From Candidatus Woesearchaeota archaeon (GTDB lineage: Archaea > Nanobdellota > Nanobdellia > Woesearchaeales > SM23-78): DNA of 64,000 nucleotides. Positions 1 to 25,122 of the stretch are shown piece by piece. The stretch spans positions 16,930 to 80,929 of the forward strand of contig JAFGGS010000022.1 in assembly GCA_016930415.1 (NCBI GenBank). The letters are read 5' to 3'. Below the pieces are notes generated by a model. The model was not told the DNA's origin and made no database searches. It saw only the letters and a program-made list of their open reading frames with translations. Made by a program: the position numbers and the translations under genes. The stretch's first letter is position 1; every line of letters begins with the position of its first letter.

Positions 1-1071
1 ACCATAAACCCTATCGACCTTGTGCTGCTCTGCAAAGACCATTATCTTCTCGCTTATCTTCGCAATCTTATCAGCGATCTCCTTCTCCTTGTCCTTTAGT
101 TCTGAGTACTCATTAGCTAGCCTAACGCCTTCCTCCTTCCGATAAGCTACTGGCTCTAGCTTCTCTGTCTCGTAGAGGTGCCTCCAGCGGGGGCAGACAG
201 GTCTATACTCGCACCATTGGCAGAGCGCAGACTCCTTTAAGGGGTATTCTTTTGCTGACTCAATCTCTTTAATGACGTTGATGGTGTCTTTCTTAAGCTT
301 CTCAAGCTGCTCGTCTGTCCTCTCGCTGCGGAGCTCCTTGTCAAAAGCCAGGTAGTGCCAGACAAGCACGACCTTCCTGCAGTCCTTGTACTTCTCCTTG
401 ACTGCGATGGCGTAGAGCGCGAGCTGCCGATCGACGTCTACTTTGTCCTGCTCTGGCAGGCTGTTCGCTGTCTTGTAGTCATGGACCTCGTACACTCCCT
501 CGCCAGCGTAGGCCAGGCGGTCTATGAATCCCTGCAGGACATGCCTCCCTTCAGGGTCCAGCCTGATCACGATCCTCATCTCAAGGCCGATAGTCTTGGC
601 TTGGTTGAAAGGCTTGTACCTGTTATGATAGTCGACTATGAACCTCTCGCCCATCTTGCGGTAGTTATCAGAAGAATATTCCTTCCTGACTATCAGCACG
701 TTGTCAGTCCAGTGCCTCTCCCACTCTGAGTTGAAGAAATCGAGGAGCTCCTGCAGCGTGTTCTCCTTCTCGAACTTAAGGTCTGTGTATAGCTTCTCAA
801 GCGTGTCGTGCACCCTTGACCCTAGGAATGATTCTATCGAGCCTTCAATCTCAGACTCGAGCTTGTCAACGTATGCGAACTTGAACTTTTGAGGACACTG
901 CTCGAACGTGGAAAGCCTGGAGTGAGAATACACTGCCTGGCCTGGCTTTAGCTCAACTCCTAATATCTCCTCGTCGCCCCTCTTCTTCTGGCCTTCCTGC
1001 GACTCGCCGCTCACACCTGCCGCGCTCGCCTTCCCTGAGAAGCCATCAAGACTACCCTGCATGTCACCCAT
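1..1071 (-). CDS. PD-(D/E)XK (RecB/Cas4-like) nuclease with C-terminal Cys cluster, 3' end truncated by window
   Basis: Minus-strand translation from ATG at 1071 gives MGDMQGSLDGF...; it contains D..E.K-type motif (GFIDRL...VHDYKT) and C-terminal CQWCEYRPVCP cluster typical of Cas4/DUF83-like nucleases; runs off window start so absent from ORF track; the + ORF 355..729 lies antisense to it. Confidence 0.55.
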   Translation of the reverse strand, partial: MGDMQGSLDGFSGKASAAGVSGESQEGQKKRGDEEILGVELKPGQAVYSHSRLSTFEQCPQKFKFAYVDKLESEIEGSIESFLGSRVHDTLEKLYTDLKFEKENTLQELLDFFNSEWERHWTDNVLIVRKEYSSDNYRKMGERFIVDYHNRYKPFNQAKTIGLEMRIVIRLDPEGRHVLQGFIDRLAYAGEGVYEVHDYKTANSLPEQDKVDVDRQLALYAIAVKEKYKDCRKVVLVWHYLAFDKELRSERTDEQLEKLKKDTINVIKEIESAKEYPLKESALCQWCEYRPVCPRWRHLYETEKLEPVAYRKEEGVRLANEYSELKDKEKEIADKIAKISEKIMVFAEQHKVDRVYG

Positions 1072-1208
1072 AAGGAAAAGGAAAGGCCGCTCCCTGTTTT
1101 AAATGTTTTGCGTTGGAGTGTCCAGTGCGTCTTGTGGCGTCCCTGCCGCCAATGCATTCAAAAGCTCTGCTCTTGTTTTGCGTCTCCAAGTATTGGACTT
1201 GAGTTTTT

Positions 1209-1715
1209 TTAGAACACGTGCTTCTCGAGCAGGAACAGTAGCTCTGGGTGGAACTTCTCTCCACGCTTGGCCATCTGCTTCATCTCTTCTATCGGGAAGA
1301 AATCCACTCTCTCTACGACTTCAGGGTCTGGCTTGAAGGGGCCGTTGAAGGTTGTCCTGAAGGTAGTCAGGAACTTTTCGAGCTTTGGTCCATCCTTGTT
1401 TCCTCCTCCCTTGTAGAAGTCTTTCTTGAAGAACTCGATCCTTGTGGTCATGCCCAGCTCTTCCTGGTACTCTCGCATGGCTGCTTCCTCGTACGTCTCG
1501 CCGCTCTGCACGTGTCCTCCGACTGCCGTGCACCAATGATGAGGGCAGAAAGATACTTTCTTGCTGCGGAGCTGGATCGCCATCTCTCCCTTGTCGTTGT
1601 ATATCAATACGTGGACTATCCTGTGGCGAAGATTCTTCTCGTAGATCTCGCTCTTAGACGCCTTTCCGACTACATTGTCATCCACGTCGACTACATCCAT
1701 GTACTCTATCATCAT
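1209..1715 (-). CDS. NUDIX hydrolase (possibly IPP-isomerase-like)
   Basis: Nudix box GGHVQSGETYEEAAMREYQEELG in 168-aa ORF; CPHHWC...GGH resembles type-1 IDI region. Confidence 0.7.
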   Translation of the reverse strand: MMIEYMDVVDVDDNVVGKASKSEIYEKNLRHRIVHVLIYNDKGEMAIQLRSKKVSFCPHHWCTAVGGHVQSGETYEEAAMREYQEELGMTTRIEFFKKDFYKGGGNKDGPKLEKFLTTFRTTFNGPFKPDPEVVERVDFFPIEEMKQMAKRGEKFHPELLFLLEKHVF

Positions 1716-1751
1716 GAAGAATCGGTTTAGGCTCTGGTATTAAATAAGTTG

Positions 1752-2552
1752 TTATTTTCCAGCGAGCATCCCGCAGGCCGCATCCACGTCTCTTCCGCGA
1801 GGCTCCCTCACGTAGCAGATGAAGCCGTGTTTTCTAAGGGCTGCCTTGAATGAGATGATTGTCTCCTGGCTCGGCGGCTGATAATGCTCTTTCTTTGAGT
1901 TCACTGGTATCAGGTTGATGAGCGACTTCTTTGGCACTAGCGCCGCCAGCCTCTCTGCGTCAATAGCAGCGTCGTTGAATCCTTTTATCATCACGTACTC
2001 TATCTGGAGGCGCCTCCTGCTGGGAAGCGAGTCATTGATCTCCTGCATTGTCTCTTTCAGGATTGAGAGAGAGTACTTCTTGTTGATCGGCATTATCCTG
2101 CTTCTCTGCTCGTCTGTTGTCGCGTTCAGGCTTATCGCGATGTTAACCTTGGTCGGCAGGAGCAGTTTCATCCTGTCGCAGAGGCCGCAAGTCGACACCG
2201 CGATCTTCCTTGAAGGGATACCTTTCTCTTTCTTCACGCGCTCGACCGCCTCCACGATGTGAGGATTGTCCAGCGGTTCTCCCATGCCCATGAATACTAC
2301 AGAGTCGACATCCAAGCCATCATCTATCTGGCCGATAATCTCGTCAGCCGACAGATTCCTGGAAAACCTCTTGCCGCTTTCGCAGAAGGAGCATCTCATC
2401 CTGCAGCCCGCCTGGGTCGAGATGCATAGGTTAGTCTTTGTCTTGTGAGGGATGACTACGCTCTCGACGAGGCTTCCATCATCCAGCTCGTGCACCCTCC
2501 TGATGGTTCCGTCGCTTGAAGAAACTCTTTTTACGACTCGCAAATTGTTCAC
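1752..2552 (-). CDS. radical SAM RNA methyltransferase, RlmN/Cfr-like
   Basis: CRMRCSFC (CX3CX2C) radical-SAM motif and C-terminal DAACGML resembling RlmN catalytic Cys region. Confidence 0.65.
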   Translation of the reverse strand: MNNLRVVKRVSSSDGTIRRVHELDDGSLVESVVIPHKTKTNLCISTQAGCRMRCSFCESGKRFSRNLSADEIIGQIDDGLDVDSVVFMGMGEPLDNPHIVEAVERVKKEKGIPSRKIAVSTCGLCDRMKLLLPTKVNIAISLNATTDEQRSRIMPINKKYSLSILKETMQEINDSLPSRRRLQIEYVMIKGFNDAAIDAERLAALVPKKSLINLIPVNSKKEHYQPPSQETIISFKAALRKHGFICYVREPRGRDVDAACGMLAGK

Positions 2553-3610
2553 TCGCCTTGCATCTTCTCGCAGATGACTGCAACGTTTTCAAAACCCAGG
2601 AGCACTACCTCTCGGTTGCCGCTTAGGCCTTGCTCGTATTCATTCCTGACCTGCCAGTATTCCTTGGGGTCCACCTCGAGCCTGATCACGACGCTCGCAG
2701 CCTTGCACTTGCGAAGCTCTGTCTTGATTAGCAAGGGGTCGTTCCCGCACACGCTTAGCACCCTGAACATGGCCTTGAAGAATGGGCTTGTCATCTTCTC
2801 TTCGCTCGTCATGAACGCGTATTTCTTCTCAGACGCCAGTTCTGTGCCTGTGATTGCGCACAGCTCTGCCAGCAGCCCTGCCTTGTGCACTGCGCCGTCG
2901 ACCTCGTAGACGTACTTCTTAGGCCCTCTTGCCTTTACGAGCCTGGCTTTCCTGTCGTTAGAGATGGTTTTTCCGGATGGAAGGATGACTGCGCTCCTCT
3001 CGGCATTCTTGAGCGGTCCGAAGTAGAGCGTCAGCCTGTTCAGCTTTCCATTGACAGAAGCGTACTCTTGCTCGCAGTCGAAGGGCATCTCTTTTATCTG
3101 GGGCGGGAACTCGACTGCGATTCTGCTCGTTATCTTCCCGTATCTTGCCAGGAACTTGTTGATGTCTGGCTTCATCGCCTCTATCTTTCGCTTTTCTGCG
3201 CTTGCGTCCCTTTCAGGGTCAAGGAAGACTATCTCTGCATCGTCTTCCTTTATTTTCTCGATGATTTCAGGGTCGAGTGCGTTTCCTGCGGTGAATTCGA
3301 TGTTCCTGAAGCGAAGCTTTGAAGCGTTCTTCCTAGCAATCTCTATCTTCTCGGTGTTGACGTCTATTCCCAGGACGTGCCTGCACTTCTTTGCGAAGCT
3401 GAACGCCTGAAGGCCTATGCCGCAGCCGACGTCCGCGATCCTCTCGCACTTGAGCCTCTCTGCCCTCCAGTCAGCCACTGCCTCGTTCGTCGCCCATCTA
3501 AGATCTTCTTTCCTGAACTCGAGCTTATCCTCTTTTGAATGCTTCACAGTTCCCTTCTGCTCTTTGCCCTTCTCTTCTTTGCTCTTGCTTTTTTCTTCTT
3601 TTCCAGCCAT
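2549..3610 (-). CDS. class I SAM-dependent methyltransferase (putative RNA MTase) with Lys-rich N-terminus
   Basis: DVGCGIGLQAFSFA motif I and FLDPERD motif; start overlaps the stop of the RlmN-like gene by 4 nt. Confidence 0.55.
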   Translation of the reverse strand: MAGKEEKSKSKEEKGKEQKGTVKHSKEDKLEFRKEDLRWATNEAVADWRAERLKCERIADVGCGIGLQAFSFAKKCRHVLGIDVNTEKIEIARKNASKLRFRNIEFTAGNALDPEIIEKIKEDDAEIVFLDPERDASAEKRKIEAMKPDINKFLARYGKITSRIAVEFPPQIKEMPFDCEQEYASVNGKLNRLTLYFGPLKNAERSAVILPSGKTISNDRKARLVKARGPKKYVYEVDGAVHKAGLLAELCAITGTELASEKKYAFMTSEEKMTSPFFKAMFRVLSVCGNDPLLIKTELRKCKAASVVIRLEVDPKEYWQVRNEYEQGLSGNREVVLLGFENVAVICEKMQGE

Positions 3611-14512: not shown

Positions 14513-14628
14513 GCCTCTGTAGCATAGTGGTGGTGCGGCTGACTCGTAAGCAAAACATTGTTTTTGAATCTCGAAAACTTTGTTTTCAAGAAATCAGCAG
14601 GTCGGGAGTTCAAATCTCCCCAGAGGCT
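14513..14628 (+). tRNA. tRNA-Thr(CGU) with 44-nt intron at canonical 37/38 position (intron 14549..14592)
   Basis: Acceptor GCCTCTG/CAGAGGC, D-arm GCAT-AGTGGTG-GTGC, anticodon stem GCTGA/TCAGC with loop CT-CGT-A|A, T-arm GGGAG-TTCAAAT-CTCCC, discriminator T; CCA not encoded. Confidence 0.8.
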
Positions 14629-17380: not shown

Positions 17381-18100
17381 CTATCTCTTGCTTGAAAGCG
17401 CCAATACATCCGTTATGTTGCACATTGAGACTCGCATCTCTGCAGCGTCATCAAAACCGATCCGAGGACAAGCCGTGTTGACCCACGCCTCTACGAAGTT
17501 GAAGTCTTCGAGATTGCGTGGATCTAATGTCTCTGTAGCGAAGAAGTAGAACTCCTTGTCAGGATAAGCGTCCTTGAGTTTCTTGGCGACCTTGAACTGT
17601 TCCTGGCCGGGCTTGACAGATATCACGACACCGATGCACTTGGAAGCCAGTACCTTGGTGAGGTTGCCCTTGTATTTCTTGAGGATGGGCTCGCACTCCT
17701 CAAGACCCATGATCGACACCTTGTCGGCTACTGGGTCGTACCTGATTATCTCTTTGAAGCTCTCCTCGTCCTTCTGCGCCAGTACCAACGCCCTAGGGTG
17801 GAAGTTGCCGTCTCCGATGTATAAGAACGCGTCCGGATCCTCTTCCAGCCTGAGGGCTGCCTTGTAGCTCACGCATCCAAGCATCTGATACTTCTCATTC
17901 GCCCGGCAAGGCTTAGAACTGATTACATCAACTCCGATACTCTCCAGCTGCTTGAGGATTGGTTCTAGTAGGTGGGTGAACTGGACGCTGGCGTAGAGTG
18001 CGATCTTCTTGTGACCTTTGCTTTTCACGTAATCCAACATGTCGGGGCTCAAGGAAATGCTCTTCCCAGTAAACTTCGCCTTTATAAGCATAGTGTCCAT
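17381..18100 (-). CDS. dph2: Dph2 (2-(3-amino-3-carboxypropyl)histidine synthase) C-terminal part, domains 2 and 3
   Basis: Starts MDTMLIKAKF... (ATG 18098-18100) 1 nt after the stop of upstream ORF; contains the domain-2 (SKPCRANE..LGCVSY) and domain-3 (VNTACPRIGFDD) Cys regions of archaeal Dph2. Confidence 0.6.
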   Translation of the reverse strand: MDTMLIKAKFTGKSISLSPDMLDYVKSKGHKKIALYASVQFTHLLEPILKQLESIGVDVISSKPCRANEKYQMLGCVSYKAALRLEEDPDAFLYIGDGNFHPRALVLAQKDEESFKEIIRYDPVADKVSIMGLEECEPILKKYKGNLTKVLASKCIGVVISVKPGQEQFKVAKKLKDAYPDKEFYFFATETLDPRNLEDFNFVEAWVNTACPRIGFDDAAEMRVSMCNITDVLALSSKR

Positions 18101-18101
18101 A

Positions 18102-18380
18102 TTATTCCTCTCCGTTCCAACCGTTCTCTTTAAGGTACTGGTTATGGCCCCACTGCACCAGGAAGTCCACACCTAGCTGTTTCAATCCTTGAGGAACGTC
18201 GCATCCGCCATAACAGCTGCCCATCCAGATCAGCACTTCGGCAGAAGTCTCCTTCCTGATAGAATCGACTATCTCCTTTGCCTTTGGCTTCAAGCCGTCA
18301 GGCAGTTGGATCAAGACAGTCTTATGCCTCTTCTCCTTAATCCTCGCGATCACGCGGGAGAGCTCTAAGTCGTACATCAT
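18102..18380 (-). CDS. dph2: Dph2 N-terminal part, domain 1 (split gene or frameshift)
   Basis: KTVLIQLPDGLKPKAKEIV...WMGSCYGGCDV matches Dph2 domain 1 including the first cluster Cys; ends with TAA at 18102-18104. Confidence 0.6.
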   Translation of the reverse strand: MMYDLELSRVIARIKEKRHKTVLIQLPDGLKPKAKEIVDSIRKETSAEVLIWMGSCYGGCDVPQGLKQLGVDFLVQWGHNQYLKENGWNGEE

Positions 18381-18436
18381 GCCTTGACGTAAAAGAACTC
18401 TCTTTTTAATGTTTTTTGGCCTTATGGCTGTTTGAC

Positions 18437-19210
18437 CTAATGTGATGATGACTTCTCCTTGAAGTAAACGTAGCTAACTATGCATCTATGGCTCGTGTTC
18501 ACGAGTATCTCTTCGCCTGTCAGGCCTTCCACGAACCCTATGCCTCGCGCTGATGGGATGAGGAGCTTCTCTTGCTCTTCTGCACTCATCTCTGCTATGT
18601 TTTTCGGGAACTCCTTCATCTCTGGCTTGTTCTTCGGGTTGAATCCTGGCCCTGCGTCTGTCGCTCTTCCGATGATGTAAGGCTTGGTTATGAGTTGTTC
18701 CATCACTACCTCATCTAGTCTTCTTTCCAGGCTTTCCTCGCGCTGAGCTCTGGAAGCTTCTTCTTCCATCCCTCTTTTCTTGTAGTCGTCTGTGCTGCCT
18801 GCGTGGCTTCCGAATATGACTGCATTGTTGAATATCTCTGATGAGCATATCTCGATGTCTTTCTGGGCGTCGCAGTCATATCCTCTGCGGCCTGCCCTGT
18901 AGGAGAATATGCGGCTCAACGTTTCGTGCAGGTTCCTGTCTGCTTGTGATTTTATCAGCGGGTATGTTCCGCTTGTGGGGGCGTGCACTAGTTGCCTTAG
19001 CCTATCATATCTCTCTAGTTCAGCCCGAAACCACCCTCTAACGAGCGGCTCTGCGTTATCGAGCTTGGCCTCGAAGCCCATTCCGAGGTGTGGGTTCAGG
19101 CGAGAGAAGTCGTATATCTTGACTTCTCCTGAGCTTGCGACTACGCATTGGCTTAGTTCTGTTGGTCTTACGATTCTGCTTCTAGGTCTGGTTTCTGCAG
19201 ACAGATTCAT
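18437..19210 (-). CDS. hypothetical protein
   Basis: 257-aa ORF; no confident family assignment. Confidence 0.35.
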   Translation of the reverse strand: MNLSAETRPRSRIVRPTELSQCVVASSGEVKIYDFSRLNPHLGMGFEAKLDNAEPLVRGWFRAELERYDRLRQLVHAPTSGTYPLIKSQADRNLHETLSRIFSYRAGRRGYDCDAQKDIEICSSEIFNNAVIFGSHAGSTDDYKKRGMEEEASRAQREESLERRLDEVVMEQLITKPYIIGRATDAGPGFNPKNKPEMKEFPKNIAEMSAEEQEKLLIPSARGIGFVEGLTGEEILVNTSHRCIVSYVYFKEKSSSH

Positions 19211-21395: not shown

Positions 21396-22550
21396 TTAAT
21401 GCTTATTTATAAAGCTAACTGTTTTAAAGATGGTTATCGGAGCCTGCTGCTGGCTGGCATACGCCTTTAAGGCCTCTATGGCAAAGCCTGTCGTGAGCTC
21501 TTCTGAACCGTATGAAAATGAATCGAACGGCCCGGCTATGAACAAGGCGCCTCTTGGCCACGAACCGTCTTCTCCTTGAGTCTTGAGGAGCCTAATCACC
21601 CCGCCCCTGACTTCTTCACCTGAATATCCCAGGTTAATGAGCGTATCCACTGCGAGCGCTGTTTCGAGCTCGTTTCCAAAAGACCCGTCGTGCATCCTGG
21701 AAGACAGGGTCTGGCCTATTATTATCTCCTTGCTGCTGTCAAGACAGCTCACATTGCTCCTTATGGCCCTTGATAGCATGTAGTTCCTGGCCAGCCTATT
21801 CGGATAGAATTGGGAGCAGTTCTCATTGTTCTTGACTGCTCGGTTGATGAAATCGCATACCTCAGGATACTGGTCTCCTAGGTATAAGAGCACGTTCACG
21901 TTCACGATGCAGTCTACTATGCCGTATTCTCCTTCACGATCGTCTTCTTTTATCCACGTGTAGAACAATCCTTCCGGATTCCTGTTATCAAGGAATGCTC
22001 TAGTATTGTCCTTGAGTTTCATCCCGTTCATCTTCAAAGCGAGTGAGGCAGCAGCGGTGTCGTCAAGGTCAGGCACTATATCCTGGGTGTTCCTGCTGGA
22101 GTAATACCTCCATATCCCTCCCGGCATCTTCTCGCCTGATAAGAACTCAAGTCCTTTCCTTGTAATGTCCGCGACTTGAGCATTATCATTGAGGTTCCTT
22201 ACTGAGTATAGTATGAGCGCTGTCGCGAATGGCGAGCTGTCAAAAGCGCATTCACTCATCTCCTCATATTGTTCGCTTCTGCACCTGTAAGTCCTGAACT
22301 CCCCGTAGTCCAGTTGCGACTCGTATAGGAACGCAATCGCCTTTTCCAGGGAGCGGTTTATCATGATGCTCTCTTCAGAGAGGTGTTTCTGGCTGTAGAT
22401 TAAGCTGCTCCCCTGACGATTCAGTCTGCTTATCAAGAAGATGCTGGCTGAGATGAGAAGCGTCAAGATGAGAATGGAGAAAAGGATTATCCTTGTGTTC
22501 CAGGATTGTATGCTGTTCCTGTTATCTTGACTTTTCCGTCTTCTTCGCAT
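21396..22550 (-). CDS. membrane-anchored prenyltransferase/class II terpene-cyclase-like alpha/alpha-toroid repeat protein with DxDDTA motif
   Basis: N-terminal TM, VPDLDDTAAASLALK (DxDDTA as in squalene-hopene cyclase), repeated GxWxxx motifs (GGIWRYY, DGSWPRG, DGSFGNE). Confidence 0.45.
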   Translation of the reverse strand: MRRRRKSQDNRNSIQSWNTRIILFSILILTLLISASIFLISRLNRQGSSLIYSQKHLSEESIMINRSLEKAIAFLYESQLDYGEFRTYRCRSEQYEEMSECAFDSSPFATALILYSVRNLNDNAQVADITRKGLEFLSGEKMPGGIWRYYSSRNTQDIVPDLDDTAAASLALKMNGMKLKDNTRAFLDNRNPEGLFYTWIKEDDREGEYGIVDCIVNVNVLLYLGDQYPEVCDFINRAVKNNENCSQFYPNRLARNYMLSRAIRSNVSCLDSSKEIIIGQTLSSRMHDGSFGNELETALAVDTLINLGYSGEEVRGGVIRLLKTQGEDGSWPRGALFIAGPFDSFSYGSEELTTGFAIEALKAYASQQQAPITIFKTVSFINKH

Positions 22551-25122
22551 CGAGAGAACTCTCCGAGTTCTTTGTGTCAGAGGCTTTGCCTCTGAGCACG
22601 TCGAGCTCCTTCTTGAATCTCAGGATCGTCTTTAGCACGTGCTCAGGCTGGGTCTGGAGGATGTCTGCGAGCTTGACGAGCACGTCTGTTCCCTTATACT
22701 CCTCATCTGAGACCAGCTTGAGCTCCTTCAGCTGTTCTGGAGTCGCGCCACCTTTTCCAAGCTTTCTTGCCTTCTTCCACTTTAAGAAAAGCTCCTCGAC
22801 CCTTGAAGGCAGCCTTCTTTCATCGACGCCTAGCGCTGTGCTTGCCTCCTTCAGGATGTCCTTCTCTTTAGATAACGTTTTCTCTGCTGCTTCTCCTGCA
22901 GTGAACTCGATCCTCACGATGCCGTCCTGGATTTTGGTGGACTTGAGCAGCTTTATGATCTTGGTCTCTCCTGTCAGGTTGAGGTGAGTGCCTCCGCAGG
23001 CCTCGACGTCAAGCCCCTCGATCGACACGACCCGTATCTCTTTGCCCGGCACAGCTCCCCCTTGGTAGAGCACGAAGCCGTACTTAGCCTCTGCGATGCT
23101 CCTTGGCATGAAGCTCTTGTAGATCGGAAGGTTCATCTCGATCACCTTGTTCGCCAAGTCTTCTATCTTCCTCATCTCAGCGTCAGATAACGCGTCGTAG
23201 TGCGTGATGTCCAGCCTTGCCTTCTCAAGGCTCTTAGAGGCTCCTGCCTGCCAGATGTGATTGCCGAGCACCTGCCTTGCGACGCCGTTTATGATATGGG
23301 CTGCGGTGTGGTGCTGTGTGAGCTGGAGCCTTATGCTCGAGTCAACCCTGCCTTGCACCTTGTCGCCTGCCTTGAACTTGGGCTTGTCCTTCATGACATG
23401 GATGATGACTGCGCCTTGCTTGAATATCTCGACTACCTCGTCCCCAGATATCTTTCCCTTGTCATGGAGCTGCCCTCCGCTCGTGGGATAGAAGACTGTC
23501 CTGTCAAGCACGACTAGCTTGTCATCTATGATCTTGAGTACTTGGGCTTCGAAGTCCAGGTAGTCGTAGGCGTCGAAGTAGAGCGCCTTAGTGGCTGGGA
23601 TCCCTTTCAGGTCGAGCTCTTTCTCCTTCCTGGTCTGGGTCTTCTGCTCTCCCTTCTCATGCCTCTCTGCGACTAGCGCGAAGAAGTTGTCAGGTATCTC
23701 GACGCGCATTCCTAGCTTCTTGGCCTCTTCCTTTACAGTCTCAGGGCTCACTCCCTGGCTGTCGTATAGCTCTATCAGCTTCTTGGTAGTGACTTCCTTG
23801 CCGCTCTTGAGCAATTGGTCCACGACCTGGGCTCCCTTCTTCTTGGTCTGGTAATATTTCTGCTTCTCGTTCTCAAGGACCTTCTTAACGTCCGAGAGGT
23901 TGTTCTTCAGGTCCGGGTAGATCGGTTCTAGGTAATCTGCGTGCCACTCGCACACATCCACCAAGTCTATCTTCCATCCGTACGACTCTATGAAGTCCAT
24001 AGCCCTCCTGAATATGACCCTCAAGTTGTAATATCCGCCGACGTTCGAAGGAAGGCCTCCGTCGCTTATCGAGAAAAGGAGCGCTCTTGCGTGCTCTGCG
24101 ACTGAGTAGAGCGCTGTCATGGGCTGTATCTTGGCCTTGAGCTCCTCCACAGGGACTTTGACCTCTGACGCGATCTCACTCCACACCGCATCGACGTCTT
24201 CCACTTCGTCGAAGTTGAGCTTTGTCGCGAGGGGCGCGAACTTCTTGTAGAGCGCGTGGTCGAACTCGACGCCGAGCTTATCCTTGAGCTTGTCGATCAC
24301 AGTCGGGAAGGCGGCGTCGTAGACTGTCGGTGCTCCCTGGCTGAACCATGCGACCCGCTCCATCCCAAGACCCATGTCGAGCACCTTGATCCTGAGTTCC
24401 TTATCTCCATGGTCTGAGTGCTCGAACATCATGTAGACCTGGTTGAACAGCTCGACTCCCCTGCTGAAGAACTCCATGCAAGGCCCGAAGTTCCCTCCGC
24501 CAGCCCAGGAGTCCTCGTGAAGCGTGAGCTCCTCCTTCGGGACGCCCACTTCCTTTGTTATGTACTCATAAATATCCTTGAACGCCTGCTCCTGGCTCCA
24601 CTCCTTCGGCTCGACGAACATGTGCTGTCCTATCATCACGAATCCAGTGCAGTGGCTTCCAGTCACTCCAACGTTGTCTATATCCCCAAATCTTAAGCAG
24701 AACTGGGGAATCACGAGCTTCCTTGCCGGCGGATCGCACTCTCCGCTTATGACATAGGGCTGGAACGCTGCGATGCTCGCGTTGGTGAAGTAAGTCGTCG
24801 GGTTCCAGCGGGCGATAACAGGATACCTGGTAACTGCGTGGTAGCCTCTCTTCTCAAAGAAGCCTTTGAACCCAAGCCAGACCCCGACAAAGTCGATTTT
24901 CCTCTTTACAGGAGGCTTGTCGAATATGTCGACTCTGCCTCTGCAAGCCGCGTCTCCGCACGCATCCTGGCCTTTGTGGACAGTCCAGTAGTAAAGGCCG
25001 CACTTGGGGCACTTCTTTCTCACAAACCCCTCTGCCTTGAGTACGCTCGTCGCGTAGTACTTGTCAGGCTCAAGCGCGGCCATCGCCTTGAACTTCTTCT
25101 TGAGCTCCTTGTCTGAAAGCAT
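22522..25122 (-). CDS. alaS: alanine--tRNA ligase (archaeal type)
   Basis: 866 aa; HTAAHI and CGGTH editing-domain motifs, archaeal AlaRS N-terminal zinc-binding region. Confidence 0.9.
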   Translation of the reverse strand: MLSDKELKKKFKAMAALEPDKYYATSVLKAEGFVRKKCPKCGLYYWTVHKGQDACGDAACRGRVDIFDKPPVKRKIDFVGVWLGFKGFFEKRGYHAVTRYPVIARWNPTTYFTNASIAAFQPYVISGECDPPARKLVIPQFCLRFGDIDNVGVTGSHCTGFVMIGQHMFVEPKEWSQEQAFKDIYEYITKEVGVPKEELTLHEDSWAGGGNFGPCMEFFSRGVELFNQVYMMFEHSDHGDKELRIKVLDMGLGMERVAWFSQGAPTVYDAAFPTVIDKLKDKLGVEFDHALYKKFAPLATKLNFDEVEDVDAVWSEIASEVKVPVEELKAKIQPMTALYSVAEHARALLFSISDGGLPSNVGGYYNLRVIFRRAMDFIESYGWKIDLVDVCEWHADYLEPIYPDLKNNLSDVKKVLENEKQKYYQTKKKGAQVVDQLLKSGKEVTTKKLIELYDSQGVSPETVKEEAKKLGMRVEIPDNFFALVAERHEKGEQKTQTRKEKELDLKGIPATKALYFDAYDYLDFEAQVLKIIDDKLVVLDRTVFYPTSGGQLHDKGKISGDEVVEIFKQGAVIIHVMKDKPKFKAGDKVQGRVDSSIRLQLTQHHTAAHIINGVARQVLGNHIWQAGASKSLEKARLDITHYDALSDAEMRKIEDLANKVIEMNLPIYKSFMPRSIAEAKYGFVLYQGGAVPGKEIRVVSIEGLDVEACGGTHLNLTGETKIIKLLKSTKIQDGIVRIEFTAGEAAEKTLSKEKDILKEASTALGVDERRLPSRVEELFLKWKKARKLGKGGATPEQLKELKLVSDEEYKGTDVLVKLADILQTQPEHVLKTILRFKKELDVLRGKASDTKNSESSLDAKKTEKSR

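Follow-up and report, generated by a model that had tools for sequence, protein, structure and literature searches.

The dph2 gene described here is very probably a naturally split and functional gene of a Woesearchaeota (DPANN) archaeon, present as two adjacent and co-oriented cistrons which code for an N-terminal fragment of 92 aa (dph2-N) and a C-terminal fragment of 239 aa (dph2-C). Dph2 is the radical-SAM-type 2-(3-amino-3-carboxypropyl)histidine synthase that carries out the first step of diphthamide synthesis on EF-2. Both ORFs are intact, and with 331 aa in total they jointly cover the whole Dph2 fold and the three cluster cysteines. The locus lies in a stretch of 64,000 nucleotides, which is called the window. 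Its parts are as follows:

18102..18380, minus strand: dph2-N, the 92-aa N-terminal Dph2 fragment, stop included, identified by PF01866, TIGR00322 and homologues
17381..18100, minus strand: dph2-C, the 239-aa C-terminal Dph2 fragment, stop included, identified by PF01866 and homologues
18098..18104, minus strand: junction TAA-T-ATG, made up of the dph2-N stop, one spacer base and the dph2-C start
18105..18113, minus strand: purine-rich GGAGAGGAA, formed by the three final codons of dph2-N and situated 5-13 nt before the dph2-C ATG
18404..18409, minus strand: TATA-like TTAAAA, which begins 29 nt before the dph2-N ATG and lies in the gap of 56 nt that follows the preceding gene

The dph2-N protein ends in ...NGWNGEE and its TAA stop occupies 18104..18102. 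It is followed by a single spacer base, T at 18101, and by the ATG of dph2-C at 18100..18098, from which a protein beginning MDTMLIKA... is read as far as the stop codon 17383..17381. The two genes lie +1 nt apart, and the reading frame of ORF-C is +1 relative to that of ORF-N. A preliminary description of this DNA had proposed a Dph2 in two ORFs of 92 and 239 aa parted by TAA, one nucleotide and ATG, and the ORF coordinates bear this out. A GTG at 18172 was considered as a longer start of ORF-C and rejected, because all homologues start at the Met equivalent to 18100; this Met1 is nearly invariant among them. Both proteins are on record at NCBI under consecutive accessions, MBN1793278.1 for dph2-N and MBN1793277.1 for dph2-C, each as a "diphthamide synthesis protein" of a Candidatus Woesearchaeota MAG, and both were found again in an independent Logan assembly. 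The genes directly flanking the pair in the window are unrelated.

The identity of the two fragments follows from family profiles. PF01866 matches dph2-N over profile positions 1-58 (E 2.4e-12, 47.3 bits) and dph2-C over positions 84-277 (E 2.4e-35, 122.9 bits), in both cases against a gathering score of 33.2. The NCBIfam picture agrees with that of Pfam for both halves, TIGR00322 giving 72 bits on dph2-N alone, and in these two collections dph2-N matched no family profile other than Dph2 domain 1. When N and C are concatenated, TIGR00322, a Dph1/Dph2 domain model, matches in one stretch over positions 1-314 of 320 with 193 bits (cutoff 35). The archaeal equivalog TIGR03682 gives 188 bits, slightly below its cutoff of 202.8, and strict equivalog status is not reached. 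The concatenate aligns over its full length with the solved Dph2 structures 6q2d, 6bxm and 3lzc (E 1e-36 to 1e-24), as does a profile of 29 concatenated relatives with solved Dph2 structures (E 9e-57). A split intein was also considered for the locus and rejected, since Dph2 homology accounts for all residues of both fragments.

The [4Fe-4S] ligands of P. horikoshii Dph2 (PhDph2), one in each domain, are C59, C163 and C287, in a residue numbering that reportedly goes back to Zhang et al. 2010. These positions agree with the offset of the 3lzc chain, which carries a 36-residue tag and has the three cysteines at chain positions 95, 199 and 323. In the alignment they fall on Cys60 of dph2-N (codon 18203..18201, motif GGCD) and on Cys76 and Cys211 of dph2-C (codons 17875..17873 and 17470..17468). 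It was observed that all three are invariant in the 29 concatenated relatives, and Cys76 and Cys211 are invariant among the homologues of dph2-C. The assignment made earlier, with the cysteine of domain 1 in the first ORF and the other two in the second, is confirmed by this alignment to the PhDph2 cysteines.

An AlphaFold2 model of the concatenate, for which an alignment was supplied (A4, with 60 C rows and 6 close N rows), reached a pLDDT of 88.9 and a pTM of 0.86; the concatenate sequence alone gave a poor model (pLDDT 44.8), which was set aside. The parts of low confidence (pLDDT <50) are the junction residues 80-95 and a short stretch at 57-59. When the model was compared with the PDB by Foldseek, the top 15 matches were all Dph2 (E 1e-20 to 1e-16, TM about 0.6) and the next one had an E of 1e-2. 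The concatenate is thus predicted to have the three-domain Dph2 fold. It should be noted here that the model says nothing about the N-C interface, because it was built from a fused chain and with no inter-fragment co-evolution.

The break sits in the loop after the GH motif. This loop is of variable length among fused orthologues, and no sequence is missing at the break, as had been claimed before. The segment following it is conserved and hydrophobic, reading (V/I)(I/L)(Y/F)(V/I)EA in fused proteins, VPTLFIEA in 6q2d and TMLIKAKF in the window. Domains 1 and 2 of Dph2 form an internal repeat (hhalign P about 0.009) in which VLIQLPDGL is in register with IALYASVQF, GGCD with LGC and FLVQWGHN with FLYIGDGNFHP, and a fourth strand (EIIRY) follows the FHP motif of domain 2 in the AlphaFold2 model. 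Analogy with domain 2 makes the segment that opens dph2-C most likely the counterpart of this strand in domain 1, its last (fourth) one; DSSP, run on the AlphaFold2 model, called no strand at this place. The preliminary description had put the split at the boundary of domains 1 and 2. The break is indeed near that boundary, but the exact position was probably imprecise, as the split probably lies just inside domain 1, before its last strand. The repeat is also a trap when split and fused Dph2 are aligned together. MAFFT wrongly placed C fragments that stand alone against domain 1, or N fragments against domain 2 (alignments A2 and A4), and this misalignment is itself a sign of the repeat.

The Dph2 loci of relatives were sampled at one genome per species, and 80 loci were returned from MAGs of Woese-, Pace- and Nanoarchaeota. 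N stands upstream of C on the same strand in all 80, and with the window included the two halves lie within 3 kb of each other at 81 of 81 loci. None of the 80 relatives has a fused dph2. The split falls at the homologous site in every locus with readable ends, with N ending in ...GHNxFxKKxEGW before its stop and C beginning with M(E/D)xLFLDAPY, and this site is the same in relatives down to about 40% identity. The best 120 database matches to each half are all stand-alone proteins, of 76-135 aa for N and 222-268 aa for C, named Woesearchaeota or Nanoarchaeota and coming from many sources. Fused relatives with an identical junction had been called for as a comparison; they were sought and none was found, the nearest fused Dph2 being that of other phyla (Bathyarchaeota, Thermoprotei, Fervidicoccaceae), with only about 44-46% identity to the N part. 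The closest relative (L001) has the same junction with another spacer base (TAA-G-ATG), and both it and the window carry a four-residue tail beyond the conserved GW (SGEE and NGEE, respectively). Amino-acid identity between the two is 84% for N and 68% for C, with synonymous sites saturated. Both halves are under purifying selection, as dN/dS among the relatives is 0.03-0.10 for the N fragments and 0.05-0.13 for C over all pairs with estimable dS. Many of the loci with a split Dph2 of the Woesearchaeota type (L013, L018, L021, L022, L024, L026, L027, L029 and others) are filed under the title 'uncultured Methanosarcinales archaeon' (binchicken co-assemblies), which seems to be a taxonomic mislabel.

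The spacing between the N stop and the C start was measured at 80 junctions, those of 79 relatives and the window, one locus (L070) having no callable start. The junction is tight (-10 to +4 nt) in 50 of them, another 10 have 13-136 nt and the remaining 20 have 190-2139 nt. Among the tight ones the distances are -10 (one junction), -7 (five), -4 (two), -1 (four), 0 (four), +1 (22, window included), +2 (seven), +3 (three) and +4 (two), so that a stop, one nucleotide and ATG is the modal layout (22/80). These offsets cover all three relative frames. The spacers of 190-2139 nt, found in about 20 relatives, hold whole unrelated genes on the same strand, which belong to at least four families and often abut both halves. 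The inserted genes lie roughly at locus positions 1000-3000, between the N stop and the C start:

UDG-superfamily insert between the halves, same strand, in L009, L028, L038, L057 and L061
YhcG/PDDEXK nuclease insert between the halves, same strand, in L043 and L058
membrane-protein insert between the halves, same strand, in L031, L043 and L055
HExxH-like protein insert between the halves, same strand, in L039 and L052

The presence of whole genes between the dph2 halves in about 20 relatives means that the junction has been used as a gene-insertion site several times. In two loci (L048 at 1798-1843 and L034 at 2957-3003) N keeps the ancestral TAAGATG at its end, and from its ATG runs a mini-ORF of some 12 codons (for example MVLVDNMVDGA and a stop), whose end is 3-4 nt short of the true C start. 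This mini-ORF may be a translational-coupling relay or the remnant of a small insertion.

Signals for expression differ between the two starts. TATA-like hexamers are found in front of N within -42..-22 at 65 of 80 loci, starting at -31..-27 in most relatives, whereas by the same test they are rare before C (5 of 50 tight starts and 6 of 25 spaced starts). The peak 27-31 nt upstream of the dph2-N start suggests leaderless transcripts in the clade, and in the window the TTAAAA at 18404..18409 is probably the archaeal promoter from which a leaderless N-C mRNA starts. A second TATA-like peak was seen at -15 in 20 loci, which may come from mis-called starts. With SD-like 4-mers the picture is reversed. 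They occur within -20..-3 of the C start at 46 of 50 tight and 20 of 30 spaced junctions, and upstream of N starts at only 13 of 80 loci, which is the background level (18%); the enrichment before C is partly due to the conserved EGW codons. In the window, GGAGAGGAA is a candidate Shine-Dalgarno-like element.

Stop-start distances of -8 to +10 nt have been linked to termination-reinitiation coupling by experiments in Haloferax and E. coli, and gene pairs at these distances are enriched for subunits of heteromeric complexes (PMC6728339, PMC10666635). The window pair fits this layout, as it is co-oriented and spaced by +1 nt, and TATA-like boxes are rare at tight C starts. The coupled pairs of Huber et al. 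2019 (PMC6728339) and 2023 (PMC10666635) are likewise co-oriented with distances inside -8 to +10 nt. Their commonest spacing is -4 or -1 nt, in contrast to the mode of +1 nt in split dph2.

Besides a natural split gene of the kind known from small-genome archaea, the preliminary description had allowed for a recent frameshift or nonsense mutation that turned a once-fused dph2 of the source genome into a pseudogene, and for an error of assembly. Pseudogenisation would agree with the stop between the two ORFs and with ORF-C being in a frame other than that of ORF-N, and dph genes have been lost altogether in some archaeal lineages (PMC6143161). It is nevertheless contradicted by the identical split site in 80 of 80 relatives and by purifying selection on both halves and the invariance of the catalytic cysteines, and the fused form was found in the clade neither at the 80 loci nor among the best 120 matches per half. 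This explanation is refuted by the comparison, and we consider it extremely improbable. As the source is a metagenome-assembled contig, a sequencing or assembly error such as an indel could in principle have broken a fused gene by a spurious stop and frameshift. But the same two-gene architecture at the homologous site recurs in dozens of assemblies made independently, in different studies and with different assemblers, the exact two proteins are on record in NCBI and in the Logan assembly, and the junction is a clean stop/start pair with a conserved Met1 of C. The claim of an error does not survive this, and its probability is negligible. The claim of a natural split gene, on the other hand, is strongly supported by the 80 split relatives and by purifying selection on both halves.

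Two more explanations accept both ORFs as real. The cell could make one fused Dph2 polypeptide by programmed recoding, that is by a +1 frameshift, stop read-through or bypass; only 4 nt lie between the last sense codon of N and the start codon of C, and a shift by +1 would bring both into one frame. However, the junctions of relatives between -10 and +4 nt are in all three frames, about 30 loci have spacers of 13-2139 nt, many of which contain whole genes, and the Met start of C is nearly invariant. On inspection the window sequence has no slippery motif, and GAA-TAA-T offers poor +1 re-pairing for tRNA-Glu. The occurrence of all frames together with gene-filled spacers makes N and C independent cistrons and rules out frameshifting, read-through and bypass as the route to a functional product, so that recoding is hardly credible as an account of this locus. 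It could also be that both genes are real but no longer make up one enzyme, for example with C acting alone or with another partner and N in a separate role. The halves are parted by other genes in about 20 relatives and are far apart in the genome of the nanoarchaeon Nst1 (PMC3655853), as such a division would allow. Yet N and C stay on the same strand within 3 kb at every one of the 81 loci, the cluster needs three cysteines of which one, itself invariant, is present only in N, and N matches nothing but Dph2 domain 1. A separation of roles is therefore quite unlikely, though less so than decay or recoding.

For the naturally split, functional dph2 the following course of events can be proposed. 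The TATA box about 29 nt upstream of dph2-N would drive a leaderless bicistronic mRNA. dph2-C would be translated by termination-reinitiation at TAA-T-ATG, possibly aided by the purine-rich end of dph2-N, and this would give the N and C polypeptides in a stoichiometry of 1:1. Assembly of the two chains, probably during translation, could then yield a Dph2-like protomer. In it the N-terminal end of C would probably form the last beta-strand of domain 1 and complete the sheet of the N fragment. The ligands of the [4Fe-4S] cluster would come from both sides of the subunit interface, Cys60 from N and Cys76 and Cys211 from C, and protomers may pair in the manner of fused archaeal Dph2 to form (NC)2.

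A more far-reaching view of the same locus can be put forward, which we hold to be doubtful. The two-subunit Dph2 may have been fixed anciently and kept by selection instead of resulting from mere passive genome decay. Its two chains would be bridged by the Fe-S cluster and by the last strand of domain 1, which would make assembly of the enzyme, and with it diphthamide synthesis, controllable via the small N subunit. The N/C junction could also be a place where unrelated genes, such as one for a UDG-like glycosylase or a PDDEXK nuclease, have landed again and again and now ride on the operon.

Split Dph1/2 has been described before in this part of the archaeal tree. In excerpts of Narrowe et al. 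2018 it is reported for DPANN, the halves being concatenated for phylogeny, with the warning that the Dph gene is unsuitable as a completeness marker (PMC6143161), and in excerpts of Dombrowski et al. 2019 it is listed for Parvarchaeota, Pacearchaeota, Woesearchaeota and Altiarchaeota (PMC6349945). To judge from these excerpts it is the same phenomenon in the same lineage as the window, with nothing essential that differs. The excerpts note the split only; junction architecture, split site, promoter signal and inserted genes do not figure in them. Table 1 of Podar et al. 2013 gives a split Dph2 for the nanoarchaeon Nst1 (Nst 222 and 440), with the halves far apart (PMC3655853). Nst1 resembles the window in having two genes in a small DPANN genome, but its halves are distant whereas those of the window are adjacent and probably translationally coupled. 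Fused Dph2 proteins (P. horikoshii 3LZC/3LZD, Ca. Methanoperedens 6BXM, M. smithii 6Q2D) match the window concatenate in sequence and fold over the full length, are of similar size (about 325-342 aa against 331 aa in the window) and have the same three cluster cysteines. The fused archaeal Dph2 proteins are single chains that form homodimers, whereas the Dph2 chain of the window is interrupted behind the domain 1 GH motif, so that two polypeptides would ligate the cluster.

The split Dph2 in the window is thus an instance of an already published feature and is ordinary for its lineage. What is added here is descriptive: a single conserved split site, the modal layout of stop, one nucleotide and ATG, the promoter and coupling signals, the repeated gene insertions and the assignment of the cluster ligands to two chains. 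For annotation, the locus is not to be flagged as a pseudogene or an assembly error, and Dph2 is not to serve as a single-copy completeness marker in DPANN genomes. A clade-wide break in a non-canonical radical-SAM enzyme would indicate that a [4Fe-4S] site can be built from two chains, and split dph2 offers a ready system for the study of co-translational assembly and translational coupling in DPANN archaea. The current understanding of diphthamide biosynthesis is left unchanged, and the biological interest is modest.

A few other features of the window were observed. Alanyl-tRNA synthetase is encoded at 22522-25122 (minus strand) by a single ORF of 866 aa (PF01411 and tRNA_SAD), in contrast to the split AlaRS of Nanoarchaeum equitans; gene splitting in the source genome is therefore gene-specific. 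The upstream neighbour of dph2-N, at 18437-19210 on the minus strand, codes for 257 aa and has a weak, sub-threshold match to HATPase_c_2 (E 6e-5, 23.4 bits against a cutoff of 27.4). At 14513-14628 on the plus strand an Rfam tRNA match of 55 bits, missed by ARAGORN, spans 116 nt, and it is probably an archaeal tRNA with an intron of about 45 nt inserted behind the anticodon region.
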